64,000 nt of DNA from Actinomycetes bacterium (lineage in GTDB: Bacteria > Actinomycetota > Acidimicrobiia > Acidimicrobiales > Acidimicrobiaceae), in the NCBI GenBank assembly GCA_021850605.1, contig JAJZLQ010000081.1:13679-77678 (forward strand), given 5' to 3'. Shown here piece by piece: positions 36,714 to 46,899 of the stretch. Each line of letters opens with the position of its first letter. Within the stretch, counting starts at the first letter, position 1. The notes beneath the pieces were generated by a model that saw nothing but the letters and a program-made list of their open reading frames with translations, was not told the DNA's origin and did no database searches. The position numbers were made by a program, and so were the translations under genes.

Positions 36714-39064
36714 ACAGGGAGCGCGACGAGAGAGTGGAGCGCTTCCTGGCTCGCCGGGCGGATCTTTTAGCCGCCGACTGGCGCCGGCTGGAGCCAATGG
36801 CCGAAATGGCTGAGGTGTGCGACGCTTTTCTTGCCGAGTTGGCGCAGGGTGAATCGGGGATCGCCCTGGTCGCAGTAGGGGGCTACGGCAGGCTGGAGAT
36901 GGGCCCCTACTCCGATTTGGATATATTGCTCCTACACAGGCCGCGCGCCAAGGTCGACCGGCTTACCAATACGATCTGGTACCCGATTTGGGATTCCGGC
37001 GTCGCCCTCGACCACTCGGTGCGGACTGTACCCCAGGCGTTGCGCACGGCATCGACCGACCCTCGGGTCTTGATCGGAATGCTTGACGCCCGCTTGGCCT
37101 TCGGCTCCCAGGAACTCTTCCTCGGACTCAAGGGTCGTGCGGAGGCCAGCTTCAGGTCGCAGGCGGAGCACTACCGGAGTGTCTTCCGTAGCCAGGTCGA
37201 GGAGCGGCGTAGCCAATCCGGTGAACTGGCCTTCCTGCTCGAGCCGGACCTCAAGGAGGCTCACGGGGGCATGCGGGACATGGTGGTCCTTGGTCACCTG
37301 CTGCGTTTGGAACCCGAACCCACGCAGGCGCTGGAGATCCTCGTCGGCCACCGGGCTTTGCTGCTGCGCATCAGAAACCTGGTCCAAGCTCGTGCGGGCC
37401 GTGCGCAGAACCGCCTCCTGCTGCAGGACCAGGACTGGGTGGCCGAGGCGGCGGGATGTTCCGACGCCGATGACCTGATGGCAAGGATATCGGAGATTGG
37501 CCGATTCGTCTCCAGGGCCCTGGAGGAGAGCCTGGCTCCCGCCCCCCGTGCCCGTGCGCACCCGCGGGCGGTCGATCGGCGGGAATGGCCGGCGGGGTCT
37601 CTCAGCGTTCAGGCCGGGCAGCTGTTTCTGGACGCGTCGGCTCTGGAGGGCCTGGACGCCCAGTCAGTGATCCACCTGGCGGCTCTGTCCCTCTCGATCG
37701 GCGCTCGCCTATCTTCTGCGACGTTGGAGCTGCTCGCCGAACGGGTGCCACCGATGGAAGGGCAATGGACCCGCGGAACCTTCTCCGCCCTGGTCTCCCT
37801 CCTATCCCACGGCCGGGAATCGATAGCCTTGATGGAGCGTCTCGACCATTACGGCCTGCTCGACAAGGTCATCCCAGAATGGCGCCTGGTCCGCTACCGG
37901 CCCCAGCGCAACGCATACCACACCTATACGGTGGACCGGCATCTGATCGAAGCTGCGGTGGGCGCCGGCAACATGAGGCGGGAAGTGAGGCGTCCCGACT
38001 TGCTGGTGGTGGGGGCCTTGCTGCACGATATCGGTAAGGGGGCATCCGGCGACCACTCCGAGTCGGGCGCCGAGCTGGCCAGGTCAATCGTGACGCGGAT
38101 GGGACTGGAGCAGGGGGATATCGAGGTGGTGGTTCGCCTGGTCCGGCACCATCTTCTCCTACCCGATACCGCCACGCGCAGGGATATCTCGGATCCGAGG
38201 ACCATCCAGATGGTGGCCGAGCGAGTGGTGGACGCAACGACGCTGGAGCTTCTGCAGGTGCTTGCCGAGGCGGACGGGCATGCGACCGGTCCAGCGGCCT
38301 GGTCGAGTTGGAAGGAGGGCCTGATTGACCGGCTATGCCGCCTGACCTTGGCGTATCTGCACGGCGAGGTCGCCCCGGTGGCACCTTCGTTCCCCGGGGA
38401 CTTCGAGCGCGAAATGATCGGGCGCTTCGACGGAGCGCCGAGGGTCGAGGCAGGCGATGACCTGGTATGGGTGGTTGCCCCTGACCGGCTTGGTCTGTTC
38501 GCCAGGGTTGCGGGGACCCTTTCGCTGCTTGGCCTGAGTGTGGTCGAGGCCGATGTCTACTCCGAATCCGGGGTTGCAATCGAGCGTCTCCGCGTGGTTG
38601 CGCCCCACGGCAAGGAGATCCGCTGGCAACGTTTCGAGTCGGAGCTCCTCAAAAGCCTTGCCGATGGCCACCAGCTGGAGAAGAGGCTGGCCGAGCGAGC
38701 GGCCACCAGCTCTCGCCGTCGCCGGGTGGCCCCTTCGGCCGCGCTGACTCCGCGTGTGACGATCCACGGCGACGCCTCCGAGCGGGCGACTGTGTTCGAG
38801 GTGTGCGCACCGGACTCGGTGGGCCTGCTGCACCGCCTTACGAGCGTCTTTGCACGCCACGGGCTGAACATCGTTCACGCCAAGGTGCTCACGCTCGGAG
38901 ACGATGTGGTGGATACCTTCTACGTCACCGGCGCGGACGGACGCGTGGTGGTCGAGCCTCGAGTTATGCACGCCGTCCAAGGGGAGCTGGAGGGCGCTCT
39001 GGAGGATGCGCTCTCCCGGGGGCCCCAACAACCCCAGCCCTCGGCTCCCGCCACGCGAAGCTAG
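36710..39064 (+). CDS. glnD: PII uridylyl/adenylyl-transferase
   Basis: VGGYGR...SDLD nucleotidyltransferase motif, HD domain (LLHDIGKG), two ACT domains. Confidence 0.95.
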   Translation: MNRERDERVERFLARRADLLAADWRRLEPMAEMAEVCDAFLAELAQGESGIALVAVGGYGRLEMGPYSDLDILLLHRPRAKVDRLTNTIWYPIWDSGVALDHSVRTVPQALRTASTDPRVLIGMLDARLAFGSQELFLGLKGRAEASFRSQAEHYRSVFRSQVEERRSQSGELAFLLEPDLKEAHGGMRDMVVLGHLLRLEPEPTQALEILVGHRALLLRIRNLVQARAGRAQNRLLLQDQDWVAEAAGCSDADDLMARISEIGRFVSRALEESLAPAPRARAHPRAVDRREWPAGSLSVQAGQLFLDASALEGLDAQSVIHLAALSLSIGARLSSATLELLAERVPPMEGQWTRGTFSALVSLLSHGRESIALMERLDHYGLLDKVIPEWRLVRYRPQRNAYHTYTVDRHLIEAAVGAGNMRREVRRPDLLVVGALLHDIGKGASGDHSESGAELARSIVTRMGLEQGDIEVVVRLVRHHLLLPDTATRRDISDPRTIQMVAERVVDATTLELLQVLAEADGHATGPAAWSSWKEGLIDRLCRLTLAYLHGEVAPVAPSFPGDFEREMIGRFDGAPRVEAGDDLVWVVAPDRLGLFARVAGTLSLLGLSVVEADVYSESGVAIERLRVVAPHGKEIRWQRFESELLKSLADGHQLEKRLAERAATSSRRRRVAPSAALTPRVTIHGDASERATVFEVCAPDSVGLLHRLTSVFARHGLNIVHAKVLTLGDDVVDTFYVTGADGRVVVEPRVMHAVQGELEGALEDALSRGPQQPQPSAPATRS

Positions 39065-39102: not shown

Positions 39103-39636
39103 ATGGAATCCTTCCCCTTCGTGGTGGAAGTCGGCGACATAGTTGACCAGCGGACCGACGTCATCGTCAACGCCGCCAACAGCTCACTCATGGGTGGCGG
39201 GGGAGTGGACGGGGCGATCCACCGGCTCGGGGGTCCGGCGATACTGGCCGAGTGCATGGAGATCAGGCGGACTATATACCCGCGAGGGCTTCCGGCCGGC
39301 GAGGCGGTGGCCACCTCGGGTGGGAACCTGTCCTGCCGCTGGGTCATCCATACGGTCGGTCCCGTGTATCGCGATCCGAGCCAGTTTGACTTGCTGGCCT
39401 CCTGTTACATTCACTCGCTGCTGCTCGCGGCCGACCTTGGGGCAAGGTCGATCGCCTTTCCTCTGGTCGGAGCGGGCGTCTATGGTTGGCCCGCACCTCT
39501 GGCCAGCCGCGCGGCGATCGAAGGGGCCCGCCGGGCGCTGGAAACAACCGGGGGAGTCTCGGAGGTCCGCTTCGTGCTTTACCGGGATGAGCTCGCCGAG
39601 GTGTTCAGGGCGGAGCTGGAGCGCGGGCCAAGCTAG
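39103..39636 (+). CDS. macrodomain protein (O-acetyl-ADP-ribose deacetylase / ADP-ribosylhydrolase, YmdB-like)
   Basis: GDI, VNAANSSLMGGGGVDGAIH, HTVGP, FPLVGAGVYG. Confidence 0.92.
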   Translation: MESFPFVVEVGDIVDQRTDVIVNAANSSLMGGGGVDGAIHRLGGPAILAECMEIRRTIYPRGLPAGEAVATSGGNLSCRWVIHTVGPVYRDPSQFDLLASCYIHSLLLAADLGARSIAFPLVGAGVYGWPAPLASRAAIEGARRALETTGGVSEVRFVLYRDELAEVFRAELERGPS

Positions 39637-40556
39637 CCGGACGCACCGTCGCCGATCATTTCGTAGACGATCCGGGCCGCCAGCCTGGCGCCGCGGTTGT
39701 CGATGTCGTACACCGGGTTCAACTCGGCCACGTCTGAGAGTATGAGCTTGCCCGAGTCGCGCAGTACGCGCACGCATTCGAGCACCACCGCCGGCGGCAC
39801 TCCCAGGGCGGCCGGCGCCGAGACCGCCGGCATTGCCGAAGAGGGGAGCGCATCCAGGTCAACCGTCAGGTAGATCTGGTCGAATGCGTGGGCGATCTCC
39901 GCGAGCAGCTCACGTGGCACCTCCTGCATCTGCATGTCCGTGAGGTAGGTGGTGCCGATTTCCTCGGCGGTGCGGAAAAGGGCGGCGGTGTTCGCCGCTT
40001 CGGAGACGCCGAGGCAGAAGTAGTGGAAGCGCGCGCCGTCCGACCGGGAAATCCCTGCCATCTGGCGGAATGGGGTGCCGGAGCTGGGCCGGTCGGAGGA
40101 ACGCAGGTCGAAGTGGGCGTCGATGTTGACCACGGCCAACCCCTCGGTGCCCTCCCCCCTGGCACGCAAGGCGGAACGGATGCCAAGATAAGACCCCCAG
40201 GCCACCTCGTGACCCCCTCCCAGCACCACCGGGCGGTGCCCGTTCGCGATAACGGCCGCGATTGCCGTTGACAATTCCGCTTGGGCCTGCTCGAGCCCGT
40301 CCTCGACGCAGGCGACGTCCCCGGCGTCGTATAGAGGGTGGGCAAGGTGAGAGGCCAACCCGCCGAGTTGGGCTCGCAGCGCGGCGGGTCCACCCGCGGC
40401 GCCGGGCCGGCCCTGGTTGCGTACCACCCCTGCGTCGCAGGCGAAGCCGATCACCGCCGTGCCCGGTGCGAGTTCCGCCCCATCGTCGGTGGGGATCGAT
40501 CGCTGGTGCAGTCGAACGGCGTCCGGCGCCTCGGCCGAGTCGTCACGTCCGCTCAT
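39633..40556 (-). CDS. hutG: formimidoylglutamase (arginase family)
   Basis: GFACDAGVVRNQGRPGA, GGGHE, DAHFD, DLD, AELNP. Confidence 0.92.
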   Translation of the reverse strand: MSGRDDSAEAPDAVRLHQRSIPTDDGAELAPGTAVIGFACDAGVVRNQGRPGAAGGPAALRAQLGGLASHLAHPLYDAGDVACVEDGLEQAQAELSTAIAAVIANGHRPVVLGGGHEVAWGSYLGIRSALRARGEGTEGLAVVNIDAHFDLRSSDRPSSGTPFRQMAGISRSDGARFHYFCLGVSEAANTAALFRTAEEIGTTYLTDMQMQEVPRELLAEIAHAFDQIYLTVDLDALPSSAMPAVSAPAALGVPPAVVLECVRVLRDSGKLILSDVAELNPVYDIDNRGARLAARIVYEMIGDGASG

Positions 40557-41793
40557 TTGCGTTTGTGCTGCGGTGATCCTCACGGCGCATGGCTCCTTTC
40601 ACGAAGGTCGAATGCAGGGGGCTGAAGCCAATGTTGTAGCTGAGCTCGGCAGGAGTGTCCGCGTCCCATACCGCCAAGTCGGCACGCATCCCCTTGGCGA
40701 TCGCGCCCCGGTCGGAGATGCCGAGCGCTCGCGCGGCATTGGCCGTGGTGCCCCTTAGCGCCTCTGCGGGAGTGAGCCCGAACAGCAGGCAGGCCATGTT
40801 CATGGCCAGGGGGAGGCTTTCCAGGGGTGAGGTACCGGGATTGTGGTCGGTGGCCACCGCGATCGGCACCCTCGCGGCTCTCAGGGTGGAGACGTCGGGG
40901 GCGCGGCTCTCGCGAAGAAAGTAGTAGGCCCCCGGCAGGAGCACAGCCACGGTGCCTGCCGAGGCCAGCTGCGCGATCGTCTTGGTGCCCGAGTACTCGA
41001 GGTGATCCGCGCTTGCCGCGCCCATGCGGGCGAGAAGGGCACCGCCTCCGGTCTCTGTGAGCTGGTCAAGGTGCGCCTTCACCGGCAGACCCAGCCTCTT
41101 GGCAGCCAGGTAGTAGCTCTCAAGCTCCTCGGCGCCGAAGGCGATCTCCTCGCAGAAGGCGTCGACCGCATCCACCAGCCCCTCGGATACGAGGCGGGGG
41201 AGCACTTCTTCCGCCATCTCTCGCAGGTATTCTTCCTTGGACCGCTGGTAGCCGGGTGGTATGGCATGTGCTCCAAGAAAGGTGGTGCGCACCTCGGCGA
41301 TGCCGATTTCACCCAGGCGCCGGGCCACTCGCAGGATCTTCTCCTCTGTCCGGGCATCCAGGCCGTAGCCGGACTTGATCTCGACTGTGGTGGCGCCGTT
41401 GGCGGACATTCTTTCCAGGCGCGCCTTGGCTCCCTCGAAGAGAGCCTCCTCGCTGGCTGCGCGCGTCGCGGAGACGGTTGAGGCGATCCCCCCGCCGCCC
41501 GAGGAGATCTCCTCGTAGCGGGTGCCCGAGAGGCGGTGGACGAAATCGCCCACACGCTTGCCCGCATGGACAAGATGTGTGTGGCAGTCGACGAGCCCCG
41601 GAGTTACCAGTCTTGCGCCTAGATCGATCTCCTGGTCGGGCCGGAGGCCGGATGGCAGTTTCGCCTCCGGCCCGTACCAGGCGATGAGGCCATCGCGGAT
41701 ATGGATGGCCTGCCCTTGCAGGTGAACGAAGCTCGAATCGGCCGTCGTGTCGCCTATGGCTGCTCCGCGGAGGAGAAGGCTCGGCCCCGTCAC
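40543..41793 (-). CDS. hutI: imidazolonepropionase
   Basis: DCHTH, EIKSGYG, DAFCE, SADHLE, ATDHNPG. Confidence 0.95.
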
Positions 41794-43496
41794 CGCTGTC
41801 CTTTTAGCATTGGCAGGTCGATGCCGGTCTCCTCTGCTGTCCGGATTGCGAGCTCGTATCCCGCATCCGCATGGCGCATTACGCCGGTGGCCGGATCGTT
41901 GAAGAGCACGCGGGCCAGCCGCTCGTCAGCGGCCTCGCTGCCATCGCAGACGATGACCACCCCGGAGTGCTGGCTGAATCCGATGCCTACGCCTCCTCCG
42001 TGGTGCATGGAGACCCAAGTGGCTCCGCCCGCGACGTTCAGCATCGCGTTGAGGAGTGGCCAGTCGGCCACGGCGTCGGAGCCGTCGGCCATGGCCTCGG
42101 TCTCACGGTTCGGGCTCGCGACCGAGCCGGTGTCCAGGTGGTCTCGCCCGATTACGATCGGGGCACTCAGCTCACCTCGCCGCACCATCTCGTTGAAGGC
42201 AAGTCCAAGGCGGTAGCGGTCATTGACTCCCACCCAGCAGATTCGCGCGGGAAGCCCCTGGAAGTGAATGCGATCACGGGCCATGTCGAGCCAGTGGTGC
42301 AGGTGTGGATCATCCGGGATGAGCTCCTTCACCTTTTCGTCGGTCCGGTAGATGTCCTCGGGGTCGCCGGAGAGGGCGACCCAGCGGAAGGGGCCGTATC
42401 CCTGGCAGAAGAGGGGACGGATGTAGGCGGGGACGAAGCCGGGGAATGAGAATGCCCGCTGCACGCCCATTTCGAAGGCGACCTGGCGGATGTTGTTGCC
42501 GTAGTCGACGGTGGGGATCCCCTCGTCGGCGAAACGGACCATGTACTCGACGTGCTCGGCGATCGACCGCCTCGCCGCCGCAATGACGGCTTGTGGGTCT
42601 TCGGCCTGCATGTGGCGCCACTTGGCCAGGTCCCATCCCTGGGGAAGATAGCCGTGCAGCTGGTCGTGTGCACTCGTCTGGTCGGTCACTGCGTCGGGGC
42701 GTATTCCGGCCGCGTAGATTTCCTTGATCACGTCCGCCGCGTTGCCGAGCACCGCCACCGAGACCGCCCTGCCCTGCTCGTGGGCGCGGTTGATGACCGC
42801 CAGCGCCTCTTCCAGGCTGTGGGCCTGGGTGTCAAGGTAGCCGCTCTGCAGACGCATCTCAATCCGGGAGGGGTCGCACTCGATGGCGAGCATCGAAAAG
42901 CCCGCCATGGTAGCCGCCAGAGGCTGGGCGCCGCCCATGCCCCCGAGCCCGGCGGTGAGGATCCACCTTCCCGAGGCGTCACCCCCGAAGTGCTGGTTGG
43001 CCATGGCGTAGAAGGTCTCGTACGTGCCTTGCACGATGCCCTGGCTGCCGATGTAGATCCAGCTCCCGGCGGTCATCTGGCCGTACATCATCAATCCCTT
43101 GCGGTCGAGTTCGGCAAAGTAGTCCCAGTTGGACCAGTGGGCAACGATGTTCGAATTGGCGATGAGAACCCGGGGCGCGCCGGCATGTGTGCGAAAGATC
43201 CCCACCGGCTTACCGCTTTGCACCAACAGGGTCTGATCCGGCTGGAGGCGCCGCAGCGAGGCGAGGATCTCGTCGTAGCACTCCCATGTACGGGCCGCCC
43301 GTCCTATGCCGCCGTAGACCACCAGATCGGAGGGATGTTCGGCCACCTGGGGGTCGAGATTGTTCTGGATCATGCGGTAAGCGGCCTCGATCTGCCAGTT
43401 GGCGCAGGTGAGCTGCGTGCCTTTGGGCGCGTGGATCACCCGGTCCGGATCGTGACGCGGGCCCTTGGGCTGTTCCTGCACTGAATTTTCCTGCAT
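41790..43496 (-). CDS. hutU: urocanate hydratase
   Basis: [37 protein letters not shown]. Start moved to ATG 43496. Confidence 0.98.
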
Positions 43497-43527
43497 CTGG
43501 TGTCTCTCTTCCTGATCGGGACAGGGT

Positions 43528-44235
43528 TCAAAAGTCTCCGGTGAATTCGAACCGGCTGGCGGGATGATATAACTCGGCGACCGTGACGGTCGTGGTGGGG
43601 GAGAAGGTTCTGCGCCACAACACCAGGACCGGTTCGTGCGGCGCCAGGCGAAGCGTCCTGGTGATCGAGTCGCTCGGCGCCTCGGCACGGATCCGGTACT
43701 CGGCCCGTTGCAGAGGAGCGACCTGCAGGAGGTAGTTCGTCGGGGTGACGGAGGTGAAGTCCTGATCGAGGTATCCGCGGGCGGCCGCGGGGTTAACCAG
43801 GCGGCGCTCGAGCTGGATCGGCACCCCGTCCTCGAGGTGGAGCATCTCGGTGGAATAGGCCTGCTGCCCGGGCTCCATGCCCAACTCCGCCGCTTGTGAC
43901 TGGTTCAGGGTCACTACCCCGGAGGTGAGCAGCTCGGCCCGATAGGCATGGCCGCGCGCCATCACATCGCTCCTGATGTCGCGGATCTCGACCAGAGTCG
44001 AGCCGTAGCGCGCCTGAGAGACGAAGGTTCCGGATCCCTTTACCCGGTGGAGAACTCCTTCATGGACCAGGTCCACCACGGCCCGGTTGGCCGTCATGCG
44101 CACCACGCCGAAGAGTCGCGCCAGCTCGTTTTCCGAAGGGACCCTGTCTCCCGAGCGGAGCCTCCCTTCCCCGATCTCGCCTAGCAGGAAGGACTTGATC
44201 TGCTCGTAAACGGGTGCGTCGCCGCTGGTGCTCAC
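43528..44235 (-). CDS. hutC: histidine utilization repressor (GntR + UTRA)
   Basis: PSENEL, RMTANRA, GSGTFV, IRDI; lies inside the hut operon. Confidence 0.93.
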
Positions 44236-45764
44236 GCGGCCGTACCCTTGGGGAAGACGGCCAATGGTGAGAAGGCGGACACGGACCCTGCTTCGACCAA
44301 TTCCTTGGCCCGCTCGATGTCGGCCGCGAGGTAGTGATCGATGTCGTAGTGGGGGACGTGGGCCCGGATCAGCTCCATTACCGGCGCGAGGCCCGGGCTG
44401 GTGGCATAGGGCGCACGAAGATCGATACCCTGGGCTGCGGCAAGCAGCTCTATTGCGATTATGCCTGCCACGTTGGCCGCTATGTCGCCCAGCTTCCGGG
44501 CGGCGAAGGTGGCCATGGAGACGTGATCCTCCTGATTTGCCGAGGTGGGGAGGGAATCGACGGAGGCGGGGTGGGCGAGGGTCTTGTTCTCGGAGGCGAG
44601 CGAGGCCGCCGTCACGTGAGCGATCATGAAGCCGGAGTTCACGCCCCCGTCCTTGACCAAAAAGGGCGGAAGGCCCGACAGGCTTGAGTCGATGAGCAGC
44701 GCGATTCTCCGCTCAGCCAAGGCGCCGATCTCCGAAGCGGCGATTGACAGCATGTCCGCGGCGAAGGCAACCGGCTCGGCATGGAAGTTCCCTCCCGAGA
44801 GGACCTCGGTGGTGTCGGCGAAGACAAGGGGATTATCCGAGACCGAGTTTGCCTCGGTCAGCAGAGTGGCGCCTGCTGTGCGGATCACGTCCAGGCAGGC
44901 TCCCATCACCTGGGGTTGGCACCGCAGGCTGTAGGGGTCCTGCACCTTCTCACAATCCTGGTGGCTAAGCGCGATTTGCGACCCTGTCAGGAGTTGCAGA
45001 TATGTGCGGGCGGTGTCGATCTGCCCCTGGTGCCCCCTCAGGTCGTGGATGCGGGCGTCGAAAGGGACGAGCGATCCAGCGGCCGCGTCAACGGACATCG
45101 AGCCCGAAACGACGGCGGCTCCGAAGAGGCGCTCCACCTTGAAGAGTCCTGCCAGAGCGATCGCGGTGGAGCACTGGGTCCCGTTGAGAAGCGCGAGTCC
45201 CTCCTTGGCGCGCAGCGCCATTGGCTCGAGGCCCGCCAGAGCCAGCCCCTCTCGAGCCGGGCATCGCCGGCCGTCGATCCAGACCTCCCCGACGTCGAGC
45301 AGCACCGCCGCCATGTGGGCCAGCGGCGCCAGGTCTCCGGAGGCGCCGACCGAACCCTTCGACGGGATTACCGGGATCGCGCCCCGGTTGAGAAGCGCGA
45401 GTAGCGCATCGACCACCGTAGGGGTGATTCCCGAGTAGCCGCGTGCCAGGCTTGCGACCTTGAGGAGCATCATCAGGCGCACCACGGGGACGGGCAAGGG
45501 TTCGCCAATGCCGACGGCATGGGAGAGTACGAGGTTGCGCTGCAGCAGCTCCAGCTGATCGCGGGCGATACGCGTGTTTGCCAGCCGCCCGAAGCCGGTA
45601 TTGATGCCGTAGGCGGCGTCCCCTTTGTTGGCGATCCGCTCGACTGCGGCCGCGCCCGCCGCTATTGCGGTTTCTGCGGCGGGGTCGAGTTCCGCACCTT
45701 CGACTTCGAAGTAGGCCAGGCGCAACTCGTCAAGTGTCAACGAACCCGGTTTAATGGTGATCAT
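44232..45764 (-). CDS. hutH: histidine ammonia-lyase
   Basis: [11 protein letters not shown] motif ASG (GASGDLAPL), [22 protein letters not shown]. Confidence 0.98.
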
Positions 45765-45772
45765 CGCAAATC

Positions 45773-45823
45773 CTGTCTATACAACCTTGCGGCAATAATA
45801 CCGAGGCAAAGTTGTCTAGGCAA
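45773..45823 (-). promoter_or_regulatory. hut promoter with two HutC-like boxes
   Basis: -35 TTGCCT (45823-45818), 17 nt, -10 TATTAT (45800-45795). Boxes TTGTATAGACAG (45773-45784) and TTGCCTAGACAA (45812-45823). Confidence 0.7.
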
Positions 45824-45969
45824 GTCTCCCGGCAAAATTCCTTCTCTTCCAGCGGTAGGGCCGAAGGTCCCTATTTCAGGGAAACCGGCGAGGTCCCCCT
45901 TCCCTGGTTTGACTCCGTGGCCGTGCCGGAGCAACATCGAAGGCGGTTGCTTCAGGTGCGGGAGGTTCA

Positions 45970-46899
45970 TTGGCTATGGCTGCGGACGGCCGAGCGGGCG
46001 GCGAGAGCCGTGCCCTGGTCTACACTTCGATTGCCACGGCTGTGCTTACCTATGGTCTGGTGGCTCTCGGAAGCACTGTCAGAGTGACCGACTCGGGTAT
46101 GGGCTGCCCGTCCTGGCCTCTCTGCTACGGCCAGCTCGGCCCGATCTTCCATTATCACCCGATCCTGGAGGAGAGCCATCGCTATTTGGCGGCCATCGTC
46201 TCCGTCTTCGTCTTCGCCACCTTGGCGCTCGCGCTTCGCTCTGGCCGCCTGCTGATGCTCCGCCGGGCGGCGAAGGTTGCCGCCGGGTTGGTCGTGTTCC
46301 AGGTCCTTTTGGGAGGCCTCACGGTGCTGGCGCGCAACGCGCCGTGGACCGTCGCGCTTCACCTGATCACCGGTCTGGTCTTTCTCGCCTCGGTGACGGT
46401 GACGGCCACCTTCGCGGTCCTGGGCAACCGCTATCGCGGTCTGGTATCCACGGCTCGAAGCTGGGGCTTTTGGTCGCTGGGCACCACTTTGGTGCTCCTC
46501 TTCTCAGGGACGCTTGTTGTCGGGTCGGGGGCAGGCGCGGTCTGTCCGACATGGCCGGTCTGTTTCGGGAACGGACCGGGTCGCCTGACATTCATCGCGC
46601 TATTGCACAGAGTTGTCATGGGGACCGCGGGCGTGCTGATCGTAACCTTCCTGTTGCGAGCCTGGCGCGATGGGGACAAGGGTTGGCGCCTGCGCTCGGT
46701 GTTCCTGATGGCGTTGTTGGGCCTGGTGGCTCTGATCGGCGCCGCCGTCGCCATAAGCAAGTCGGCCCCCTCTTGGGCTGATGTGCACCTCGCGGCGGCG
46801 GCACTCCTCTGGATCACGCTCGTGGTGCAAACCTTCACCCTTGGGGCGGCCCCAAGGTCGGTGGAGGCGGATACTCCCGTGGTTCAGGAGGCACGCTAG
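45970..46899 (+). CDS. ctaA: heme A synthase (COX15/CtaA)
   Basis: GMGCPSWPLC, EESHR, second Cys pair CPTWPVC, conserved His residues in TM helices. Confidence 0.88.
   Translation: MAMAADGRAGGESRALVYTSIATAVLTYGLVALGSTVRVTDSGMGCPSWPLCYGQLGPIFHYHPILEESHRYLAAIVSVFVFATLALALRSGRLLMLRRAAKVAAGLVVFQVLLGGLTVLARNAPWTVALHLITGLVFLASVTVTATFAVLGNRYRGLVSTARSWGFWSLGTTLVLLFSGTLVVGSGAGAVCPTWPVCFGNGPGRLTFIALLHRVVMGTAGVLIVTFLLRAWRDGDKGWRLRSVFLMALLGLVALIGAAVAISKSAPSWADVHLAAAALLWITLVVQTFTLGAAPRSVEADTPVVQEAR

Follow-up and report, generated by a model that had tools for sequence, protein, structure and literature searches.

Histidine utilization (hut) genes repressed by HutC are described from Pseudomonadota, among them Pseudomonas fluorescens, Pseudomonas aeruginosa and Klebsiella, where the repressor belongs to the TIGR02018 family, carries GntR and UTRA domains, acts at operators that overlap promoter elements, and takes urocanate as its inducer (PMC12977541, PMC8034625). 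The operator in the hut promoter, Phut, has the consensus TGTA-N2-TACA (PMC12977541). The Pseudomonas genes lie in three transcription units and encode a five-step HutF/HutG pathway, and their hutU is transcribed from a sigma-54-dependent promoter that requires NtrC/CbrB. A different arrangement, hutH-hutC-hutU-hutI-hutG (H-C-U-I-G), is found in operons of Burkholderiales and Rhodocyclaceae. Here we describe an H-C-U-I-G operon in a metagenome-assembled genome of the actinobacterial family Acidimicrobiaceae, located in a window of 64,000 nucleotides (assembly GCA_021850605.1, contig JAJZLQ010000081.1, positions 13,679 to 77,678; coordinates below are those of the window). This four-step operon, predicted to be under HutC control, was very probably gained horizontally by an ancestor of the family from a Burkholderiales-related proteobacterium with the same gene order.

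The Acidimicrobiaceae operon shares with the Pseudomonas-type systems its repressor family, a predicted operator of the same type overlapping promoter elements, and the enzymes HutH, HutU and HutI. It differs in forming a single unit with hutC inside it, in using an arginase-type HutG for a four-step route, in having a predicted promoter that is sigma-70-like, and in lacking HutD and transporter genes; its host, unlike the Pseudomonadota, is a Gram-positive acidophile. Much closer are the Burkholderiales/Rhodocyclaceae operons (Beta proteobacterium AAP99 and metagenome-assembled genomes), with identities of 69-71% for HutH, 47-51% for HutC, 73-75% for HutU, 51-55% for HutI and 45-48% for HutG. 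These operons, and the hutH-hutC pair of Caballeronia sp. M1242, have the same layout of two operators and a -10 element upstream of hutH. The Acidimicrobiaceae copies are set apart from them by forming their own clade, by longer branches, especially for HutI, HutG and HutC, and by codon and tetranucleotide usage adapted to the host.

The other actinobacterial hut loci that we sampled share the first three steps (HutH, HutU and HutI), but at identities of 42-52%, 57-64% and 35-47%, respectively, and they fall in a separate clade (100/100). Control in the phylum can also be of another kind, the hut genes of Corynebacterium resistens being governed by the IclR-type regulator HutR. No report of the transfer described here was found in the literature searched. 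Both the transfer of operons and the Hut/HutC system are familiar, and this case is a further example that opens no long-standing question.

Genes and junctions of the operon

Profile searches identify five consecutive open reading frames (ORFs) on the minus strand at 39633-45764, each scoring above the cut-off of its NCBIfam equivalog:

44232-45764, minus strand: hutH, histidine ammonia-lyase, 510 amino acids (TIGR01225, 682.6 bits, cut-off 539; NF006871, 733 bits)
43528-44235, minus strand: hutC, GntR/HutC-family repressor, 235 amino acids (TIGR02018, 258.1 bits, cut-off 220)
41790-43496, minus strand: hutU, urocanate hydratase, 568 amino acids (TIGR01228, 918.7 bits, cut-off 375)
40543-41793, minus strand: hutI, imidazolonepropionase, 416 amino acids (TIGR01224, 430.3 bits, cut-off 298)
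39633-40556, minus strand: hutG, arginase-family formimidoylglutamase (TIGR01227, 278.7 bits, cut-off 229; Pfam Arginase)

The five-gene operon proposed in a preliminary description, which was made from the sequence alone, is thus borne out, and two of the peptide strings quoted there occur in the translations. Residues expected of each family are in place: the Ala-Ser-Gly (ASG) triad that forms the 4-methylideneimidazole-5-one (MIO) group at HutH residues 141-143, the NAD-binding glycine motif GLGGMGG at HutU residue 183, and the HxH metal motif, here HTH, at HutI residue 71. HutC combines an N-terminal GntR winged helix-turn-helix domain with a C-terminal UTRA effector domain (Pfam).

Start and stop codons overlap, as had been noted, at three of the four junctions. 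The GTG start of hutC lies on the hutH stop and that of hutI on the hutU stop, each in a 4-nt GTGA overlap, and hutI and hutG share 14 nt if hutG starts at ATG 40556, or 41 nt from GTG 40583. The latter codon begins the longest hutG ORF; position 1 of the TIGR01227 hidden Markov model (HMM) matches residue 10 of that ORF, and ATG 40556, which agrees with the HMM start, is the likely start. The exception is the hutC-hutU junction, where the hutC stop (43528-43530) is followed by a 31-nt gap. The ATG of hutU at 43496 is preceded by its own ribosome-binding site, GGAAGAGAGA, and was taken as the real start; the longest hutU ORF (632 codons, reaching 43688) was set aside as over-extended.

The activities of the operon's enzymes are predicted from their family assignments. 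HutH would convert histidine to urocanate, HutU urocanate to imidazolone propionate, HutI imidazolone propionate to formiminoglutamate, and the arginase-type HutG formiminoglutamate to glutamate and formamide. Searches of the host genome (91% complete) found neither HutF nor N-formylglutamate amidohydrolase (TIGR02022, TIGR02017), and a four-step route is therefore indicated; with all four enzymes present as equivalogs, the predicted set is complete. For these iron-oxidizing acidophiles, histidine and urocanate can be added to the likely sources of nitrogen and carbon, and histidine catabolism in the family is better annotated on the proteobacterial HutC model than on the actinobacterial one.

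Distribution and phylogeny of the Hut proteins

The host was described as an actinobacterium, and this was upheld by the Genome Taxonomy Database genus that it shares with Acidithrix ferrooxidans; a search of the host genome found no small-subunit ribosomal RNA gene. One genome of this genus (G002; G and L numbers denote genomes and loci) is that of the isolate A. ferrooxidans PY-F3, as L007 and L102 match exactly over 5 kb, and the host family (f1) is therefore Acidimicrobiaceae. The family also includes a Ferrimicrobium-like group, and the recipient of the operon would have been the ancestor of Acidithrix, Ferrimicrobium and probably Acidimicrobium. One family genome, G017, we take to be probably that of Acidimicrobium ferrooxidans.

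HutU was found in 19 of the 24 genomes of the family, at 66-98% identity to the HutU of the window. Identity drops to 58-60% in other families of the same order, and full-length HutU proteins of Actinomycetota outside the family, the same order and class included, are 57-64% identical in a phylum sample of 401 genomes. Among the genomes tallied for the phylum are eleven that carry an unpublished flag (G370, G262, G127, G299, G088, G212, G159, G418, G041, G274 and G058), which entered no tree or locus analysis and whose omission leaves the HutU range unchanged. Among the 401, a HutU of proteobacterial type occurs only in Acidimicrobiaceae; no family genome searched has the actinobacterial type, and no sampled actinobacterial genome has both. 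The foreign set thus stands in the place of the native one, which suggests that it displaced native hut genes. In Pseudomonadota, full-length HutU orthologues are present in 45 of 151 evenly drawn genomes, all at 67-74% identity, and in a Burkholderiales sample in 22 of 121 (67-75%).

A HutU scan across all species, limited by its search pattern and to at most the best 80 loci, points the same way. Three Acidimicrobiaceae metagenome-assembled genomes come first among the matches listed (74-79%), followed by Rhodocyclaceae, Burkholderiales, Trinickia and Beta proteobacterium AAP99 (73-74%), and then by an Acidobacteriota genome, Pirellulaceae and A. ferrooxidans (72%). The resemblance of HutH and HutU to Burkholderiales proteins, noted in the preliminary description, holds, in that the closest HutH, HutC and HutU outside the family are those of Burkholderiales and Rhodocyclaceae H-C-U-I-G loci. 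HutC is likewise, as was supposed, typical of Proteobacteria and foreign to the phylum: the TIGR02018 equivalog (E<=1e-50) was found in none of 300 evenly drawn Actinomycetota outside the family, and its cut-off was passed in 9 of 41 relatives, all nine within Acidimicrobiaceae.

Gene order follows the same division. H-C-U-I-G is the order in the host genus and three sister genera, and it recurs unchanged at five Burkholderiales/Rhodocyclaceae loci (L004, L009, L011, L111 and L116), in keeping with the earlier remark that Burkholderiales operons begin hutH-hutC-hutU; partial versions occur at L006, L112, L113 and L115. Other Actinomycetota, including other Acidimicrobiales and Acidimicrobiia, have hutH-hutU-hutI or hutU-hutH, and at their sampled hut loci no arginase-type hutG lies nearby, nor any hutC except at L181. 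That locus belongs to a 6.3-Mb actinobacterium of another family (G410) and has a HutC-like gene (43% identical) beside an actinobacterial-type hutU (58%); its HutC-like protein groups with Pseudomonadota in the HutC tree (97), and it may represent an independent capture of the regulator alone.

The Burkholderiales themselves carry two hut lineages, which are well separated from each other in the trees of HutU and HutH. One (L004, L009, L011 and L111-L118) has the H-C-U-I-G arrangement and a HutU 72-75% identical to that of the window; the other (L125-L130) has a divergent hutC, the order hutU-hutH-hutI, and HutU identities of 67-70%. The best HutH matches in a plasmid collection are on secondary replicons of Burkholderiaceae (Caballeronia, 70-71%; Paraburkholderia, 68%). 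One hut cluster, hutH-hutU-hutD-hutI-hutF-hutG of the five-step type, lies at 612287-619678 on the conjugative symbiotic plasmid pSYMBR3459 of Paraburkholderia phenoliruptrix BR3459a (L194), with HutH 68% and HutU 73% identical to the window proteins; hut clusters therefore travel on mobile replicons in Burkholderiaceae.

Single-gene trees of HutH (80 sequences) and HutU (66 sequences) were computed under LG+C20+F+G4 with posterior mean site frequencies (PMSF). In the HutH tree all 15 family sequences form one clade (support 98), inside a clade (99) with 11 Burkholderiales sequences and one from Acidobacteriota; this larger clade lies within Pseudomonadota, and the other Actinomycetota split off at 99. 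HutU of the family joins the Burkholderiales H-C-U-I-G clade (94) inside a proteobacterial-type clade (100). HutC of the family (99) falls inside a 21-sequence Burkholderiales-sampled clade (99; one of the sequences is from the Acidobacteriota locus L005), which itself lies within proteobacterial HutC. L005, on contig JAJCXQ010000576.1 of the Acidobacteriota metagenome-assembled genome OFTM268, reads hutH-hutC-hutU-hutI and sits inside the Burkholderiales clade in every tree; it represents either a further transfer between phyla or a contig that was wrongly binned.

A concatenation of HutH, HutU and HutI (56 sequences, 1498 columns, careful search; support as ultrafast bootstrap/Shimodaira-Hasegawa-like approximate likelihood ratio test) recovers the family as one clade (99/97) and unites it with the Burkholderiales H-C-U-I-G group (100/100). 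The pair lies inside Pseudomonadota and Planctomycetota (100/100), and the other Actinomycetota are split from it (100/100). When the family was forced into one clade with other Acidimicrobiia, the same concatenation under LG+G4 lost 1298 units of log-likelihood, with p = 1.5e-48 in the approximately unbiased (AU) test. Vertical descent within Acidimicrobiia is rejected. The trees and the AU test together separate the hut genes of the family from all other actinobacterial ones, the same order and class included, and so sustain the cross-phylum transfer first proposed. The preliminary description had named a placement within actinobacterial clades as the finding that would speak against transfer; the nearest relatives are indeed actinobacterial, but they belong to the same family only, and their clade lies inside proteobacterial sequences. 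Two marks of a xenologue are thus present: a supported conflict between gene and species trees, and a distribution that is patchy in the recipient phylum and common in the donor phylum.

Several observations weigh against transfer from a Burkholderiales-related donor. HutI alone gives a three-way split, with the family between other Actinomycetota (96) and Proteobacteria (84). The HutG tree recovers only the monophyly of the family and is uninformative on its origin, because its set holds no actinobacterial comparators. The choice between nesting and sisterhood differs by gene: HutH nests the family in the Burkholderiales group at about 90, while HutU (99) and a quick concatenated tree (99) place the two as sisters. 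In a FastTree analysis of 175 HutU sequences under a simple model, the family came out basal in the proteobacterial-type clade, and paraphyletic. All trees were rooted solely by other Actinomycetota, with Firmicutes, Bacteroidota and other phyla left out of the sampling, and the operon has neither remnants of mobile elements nor tRNA genes beside it, a point taken up with its age below. The basal FastTree placement was taken as attraction to the actinobacterial outgroup, the C20 PMSF analysis having joined the family to the Burkholderiales clade. Because of the disagreement over nesting, the donor lineage is placed only approximately; both its exact identity and the direction of transfer within the pair depend on nesting that changes with the gene.

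This leaves room for a transfer in the opposite direction, in which the H-C-U-I-G operon arose in, or first reached, Acidimicrobiaceae and was later acquired by a Burkholderiales subgroup. The reciprocally monophyletic sisters of the HutU and concatenated trees do not fix the order of events, and the second Burkholderiales lineage (L125-L130) could be the native one of that order. We nevertheless consider this direction quite improbable: the two groups together lie among sequences of Pseudomonadota and Planctomycetota at 100/100, HutH puts the family inside the Burkholderiales group, HutC puts it inside the Burkholderiales-sampled clade within proteobacterial HutC, and the HutC equivalog was otherwise found in none of the 300 Actinomycetota. 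Even if the direction were reversed, the genes of the family would be proteobacterial in type.

Ancient paralogy would explain the same pattern by two old hut lineages inherited vertically, of which the family kept the one also kept by Proteobacteria. HutI, with no clear nesting in Proteobacteria, and the basal position in the simple-model HutU tree can be read in this way. Such a history is nonetheless highly improbable given that no sampled actinobacterial genome carries both types, that the AU test rejects a class-level clade, that HutH and HutC nest within one proteobacterial order, and that operator and promoter DNA, which would not be expected to survive deep paralogy, is alignable across the phyla.

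The predicted promoter and HutC operators

Upstream of hutH, three elements are predicted:

45795-45823, minus strand: sigma-70-type promoter, with -35 hexamer TTGCCT (45823-45818), 17-nt spacer and -10 hexamer TATTAT (45800-45795), scoring 9/12 in a consensus scan
45812-45823, minus strand: distal HutC operator-like site TTGCCTAGACAA, the weaker site, at -59, overlapping the -35 hexamer
45773-45784, minus strand: proximal HutC operator-like site TTGTATAGACAG, starting at -20 relative to the hutH ATG, between the -10 hexamer and the start codon

The operators were spotted by eye and then confirmed by a pattern scan and by alignment, so that the hut promoter region contains Phut-type sites as judged by sequence. 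The proximal site TTGTATAGACAG reads TGTA-TA-GACA, one mismatch away from the perfect palindrome TGTA-N2-TACA, and overlaps the AGGA Shine-Dalgarno sequence. The distal site TTGCCTAGACAA has two differences from TTGTATAGACAA. In alignments, TTGTATAGACAA and TTGTCTAGACAA of Burkholderiales loci stand opposite it, and TATACT/TATA elements of such loci stand opposite the predicted -10 hexamer. An inverted-repeat search with 6-nt seeds upstream of hutH found none, the operators being imperfect palindromes, and the pattern scan found no operator-like site in the hutC-hutU gap.

An operator-like site stands upstream of hutH at 11 of 12 family loci and 10 of 12 Burkholderiales-type loci scanned. The identical 12-mer TTGTATAGACAG occurs at nine further family loci and at the Burkholderiales loci L004, L112 and L113, and it lies at -20 in Caballeronia sp. 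M1242. The whole control region, comprising the distal site, the -10 element, the proximal site and the ATG, can be aligned between Acidimicrobiaceae and Burkholderiales, and so the cis-regulatory module travelled with the genes. In the reading that we favour, the control region arrived with the operon, its two TGTA-N2-TACA-type operators bracketing the -10 element. By analogy with the Pseudomonas system, HutC dimers bound at the two sites would block transcription until urocanate binds the UTRA domain; HutC is thus the presumptive repressor and urocanate the presumptive inducer.

We give roughly even weight to a more specific proposal, namely that the promoter, both operators, the repressor gene and the four enzyme genes crossed as one unit from a Gram-negative proteobacterium into the ancestor of this acidophilic family and replaced the native hut genes, and that the cis-layout has been kept almost base for base; in the Acidithrix genus the unit now adjoins the amt-glnK-glnD nitrogen cluster. 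If this is true, the transcription machinery of a distant host can take over a promoter-operator module from outside without altering it, and the module can persist for as long as a family has existed. The case is a well-documented passage of a complete regulated catabolic operon between phyla, with regulatory DNA in cis that remains alignable between the recipient lineages and those resembling the donor. It is relevant to how operons stay controllable after transfer to a new host, and the conserved promoter-operator module is its most instructive feature.

At three loci of the host genus (L003, L100 and L101, in G007, G001 and G008, respectively) the gene that takes the place of hutC shares only 33-34% identity with HutC of the window. 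In this sub-clade it falls below the TIGR02018 cut-off, scoring 188 bits in G008 and giving split matches in G007, and the HutG branch is very long (2.59); the proximal operator is still there. The regulator of these loci is either fast-evolving or replaced.

Genomic setting, age and variant loci

The operon lies mid-contig, and its neighbours are of actinobacterial type: amt-glnK-amt-glnD, an F420-dependent oxidoreductase and a mycobacterial-type RNase E. The glnD gene, whose best model is PRK03381, ends at 39064. At 39633-39636, hutG and a convergent macro-domain gene have their TAG stops in a shared CTAG. The 4-bp stop overlap noted previously is therefore real, but the immediate tail-to-tail neighbour is the macro-domain gene and not glnD of the nitrogen cluster. 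Seven genomes of the host genus, among them that of A. ferrooxidans, have the operon flanked by an aminotransferase/methyltransferase block on one side and by glnD on the other; its flanks differ in other genera of the family.

This setting bears on whether a proteobacterial fragment might have been mis-assembled or mis-binned into an actinobacterial genome. The host genome is metagenome-assembled, with 2.56 Mb in 154 contigs, and its fragmentation and its completeness of 91% leave some opening for such an error. The recurrence of these junctions in the isolate A. ferrooxidans PY-F3 led us to reject a chimeric assembly; they are found in several independent metagenome-assembled genomes as well. 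Together with the mid-contig position among actinobacterial-type genes and a tetranucleotide signature typical of the genome, this makes an artefact scarcely credible.

The comparison of composition with the genome that had been suggested was run. The tetranucleotide signature of the operon is at the 30th percentile of distance, so that 70% of the 6-kb windows of the genome lie farther from the genome mean, and its GC content is 66.0% against a genome median of 64.0% (88th percentile). Neither atypical composition nor flanking mobile-element or tRNA signatures, the marks of recent transfer, are present, which is consistent with an old, ameliorated transfer. A recent event was ruled out by the host-like composition and the conserved synteny. 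The transfer proposed in the preliminary description stands, but it did not take place in this genome itself: it predates the diversification of the family, the DNA is fully ameliorated, and the glnD-adjacent site is common to the genus.

Descent since entry need not have been strictly vertical. L002 (G015, genus g5) nests among host-genus sequences in all Hut trees; the Hut tree may thus depart from the species tree of the family, and the placement hints at exchange within it. Another group consists of L105 (G017), L103 (G021), L104 (G014) and L038 (Ferrimicrobium sp.), which have a proteobacterial-type hutU-hutI pair at one locus. In G017, G021 and G014, hutH (66% identical) is at separate loci (L191-L193), with no hutC or arginase-type hutG nearby. 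HutI of this sub-group is very divergent, at 40-45% identity to the HutI of the window.

A single entry followed by spread between Acidimicrobiaceae genera, or several entries, would account for the position of L002, for the separated genes of G017, G021 and G014 and the matching hutU-hutI pair of L038, for a HutU tree in which this sub-group separates from the other family sequences at an unresolved fork, and for flanks that differ between genera. We hold such a history to be unlikely, in that the family is monophyletic in both the concatenated tree (99/97) and the HutH tree (98) and the glnD synteny is kept across the host genus; the reading that we favour remains one gain by the family ancestor.

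On the other side of the control region, a gene divergent from hutH (45970-46899, plus strand) encodes a 309-aa COX15/CtaA-like membrane protein of the haem A synthase family. An overlapping ORF at 45519-46781 is longer but matches no family and is probably spurious. The COX15/CtaA-like gene keeps its place beside hutH in L001 (68% identical) and L002 (55%) but not in A. ferrooxidans.

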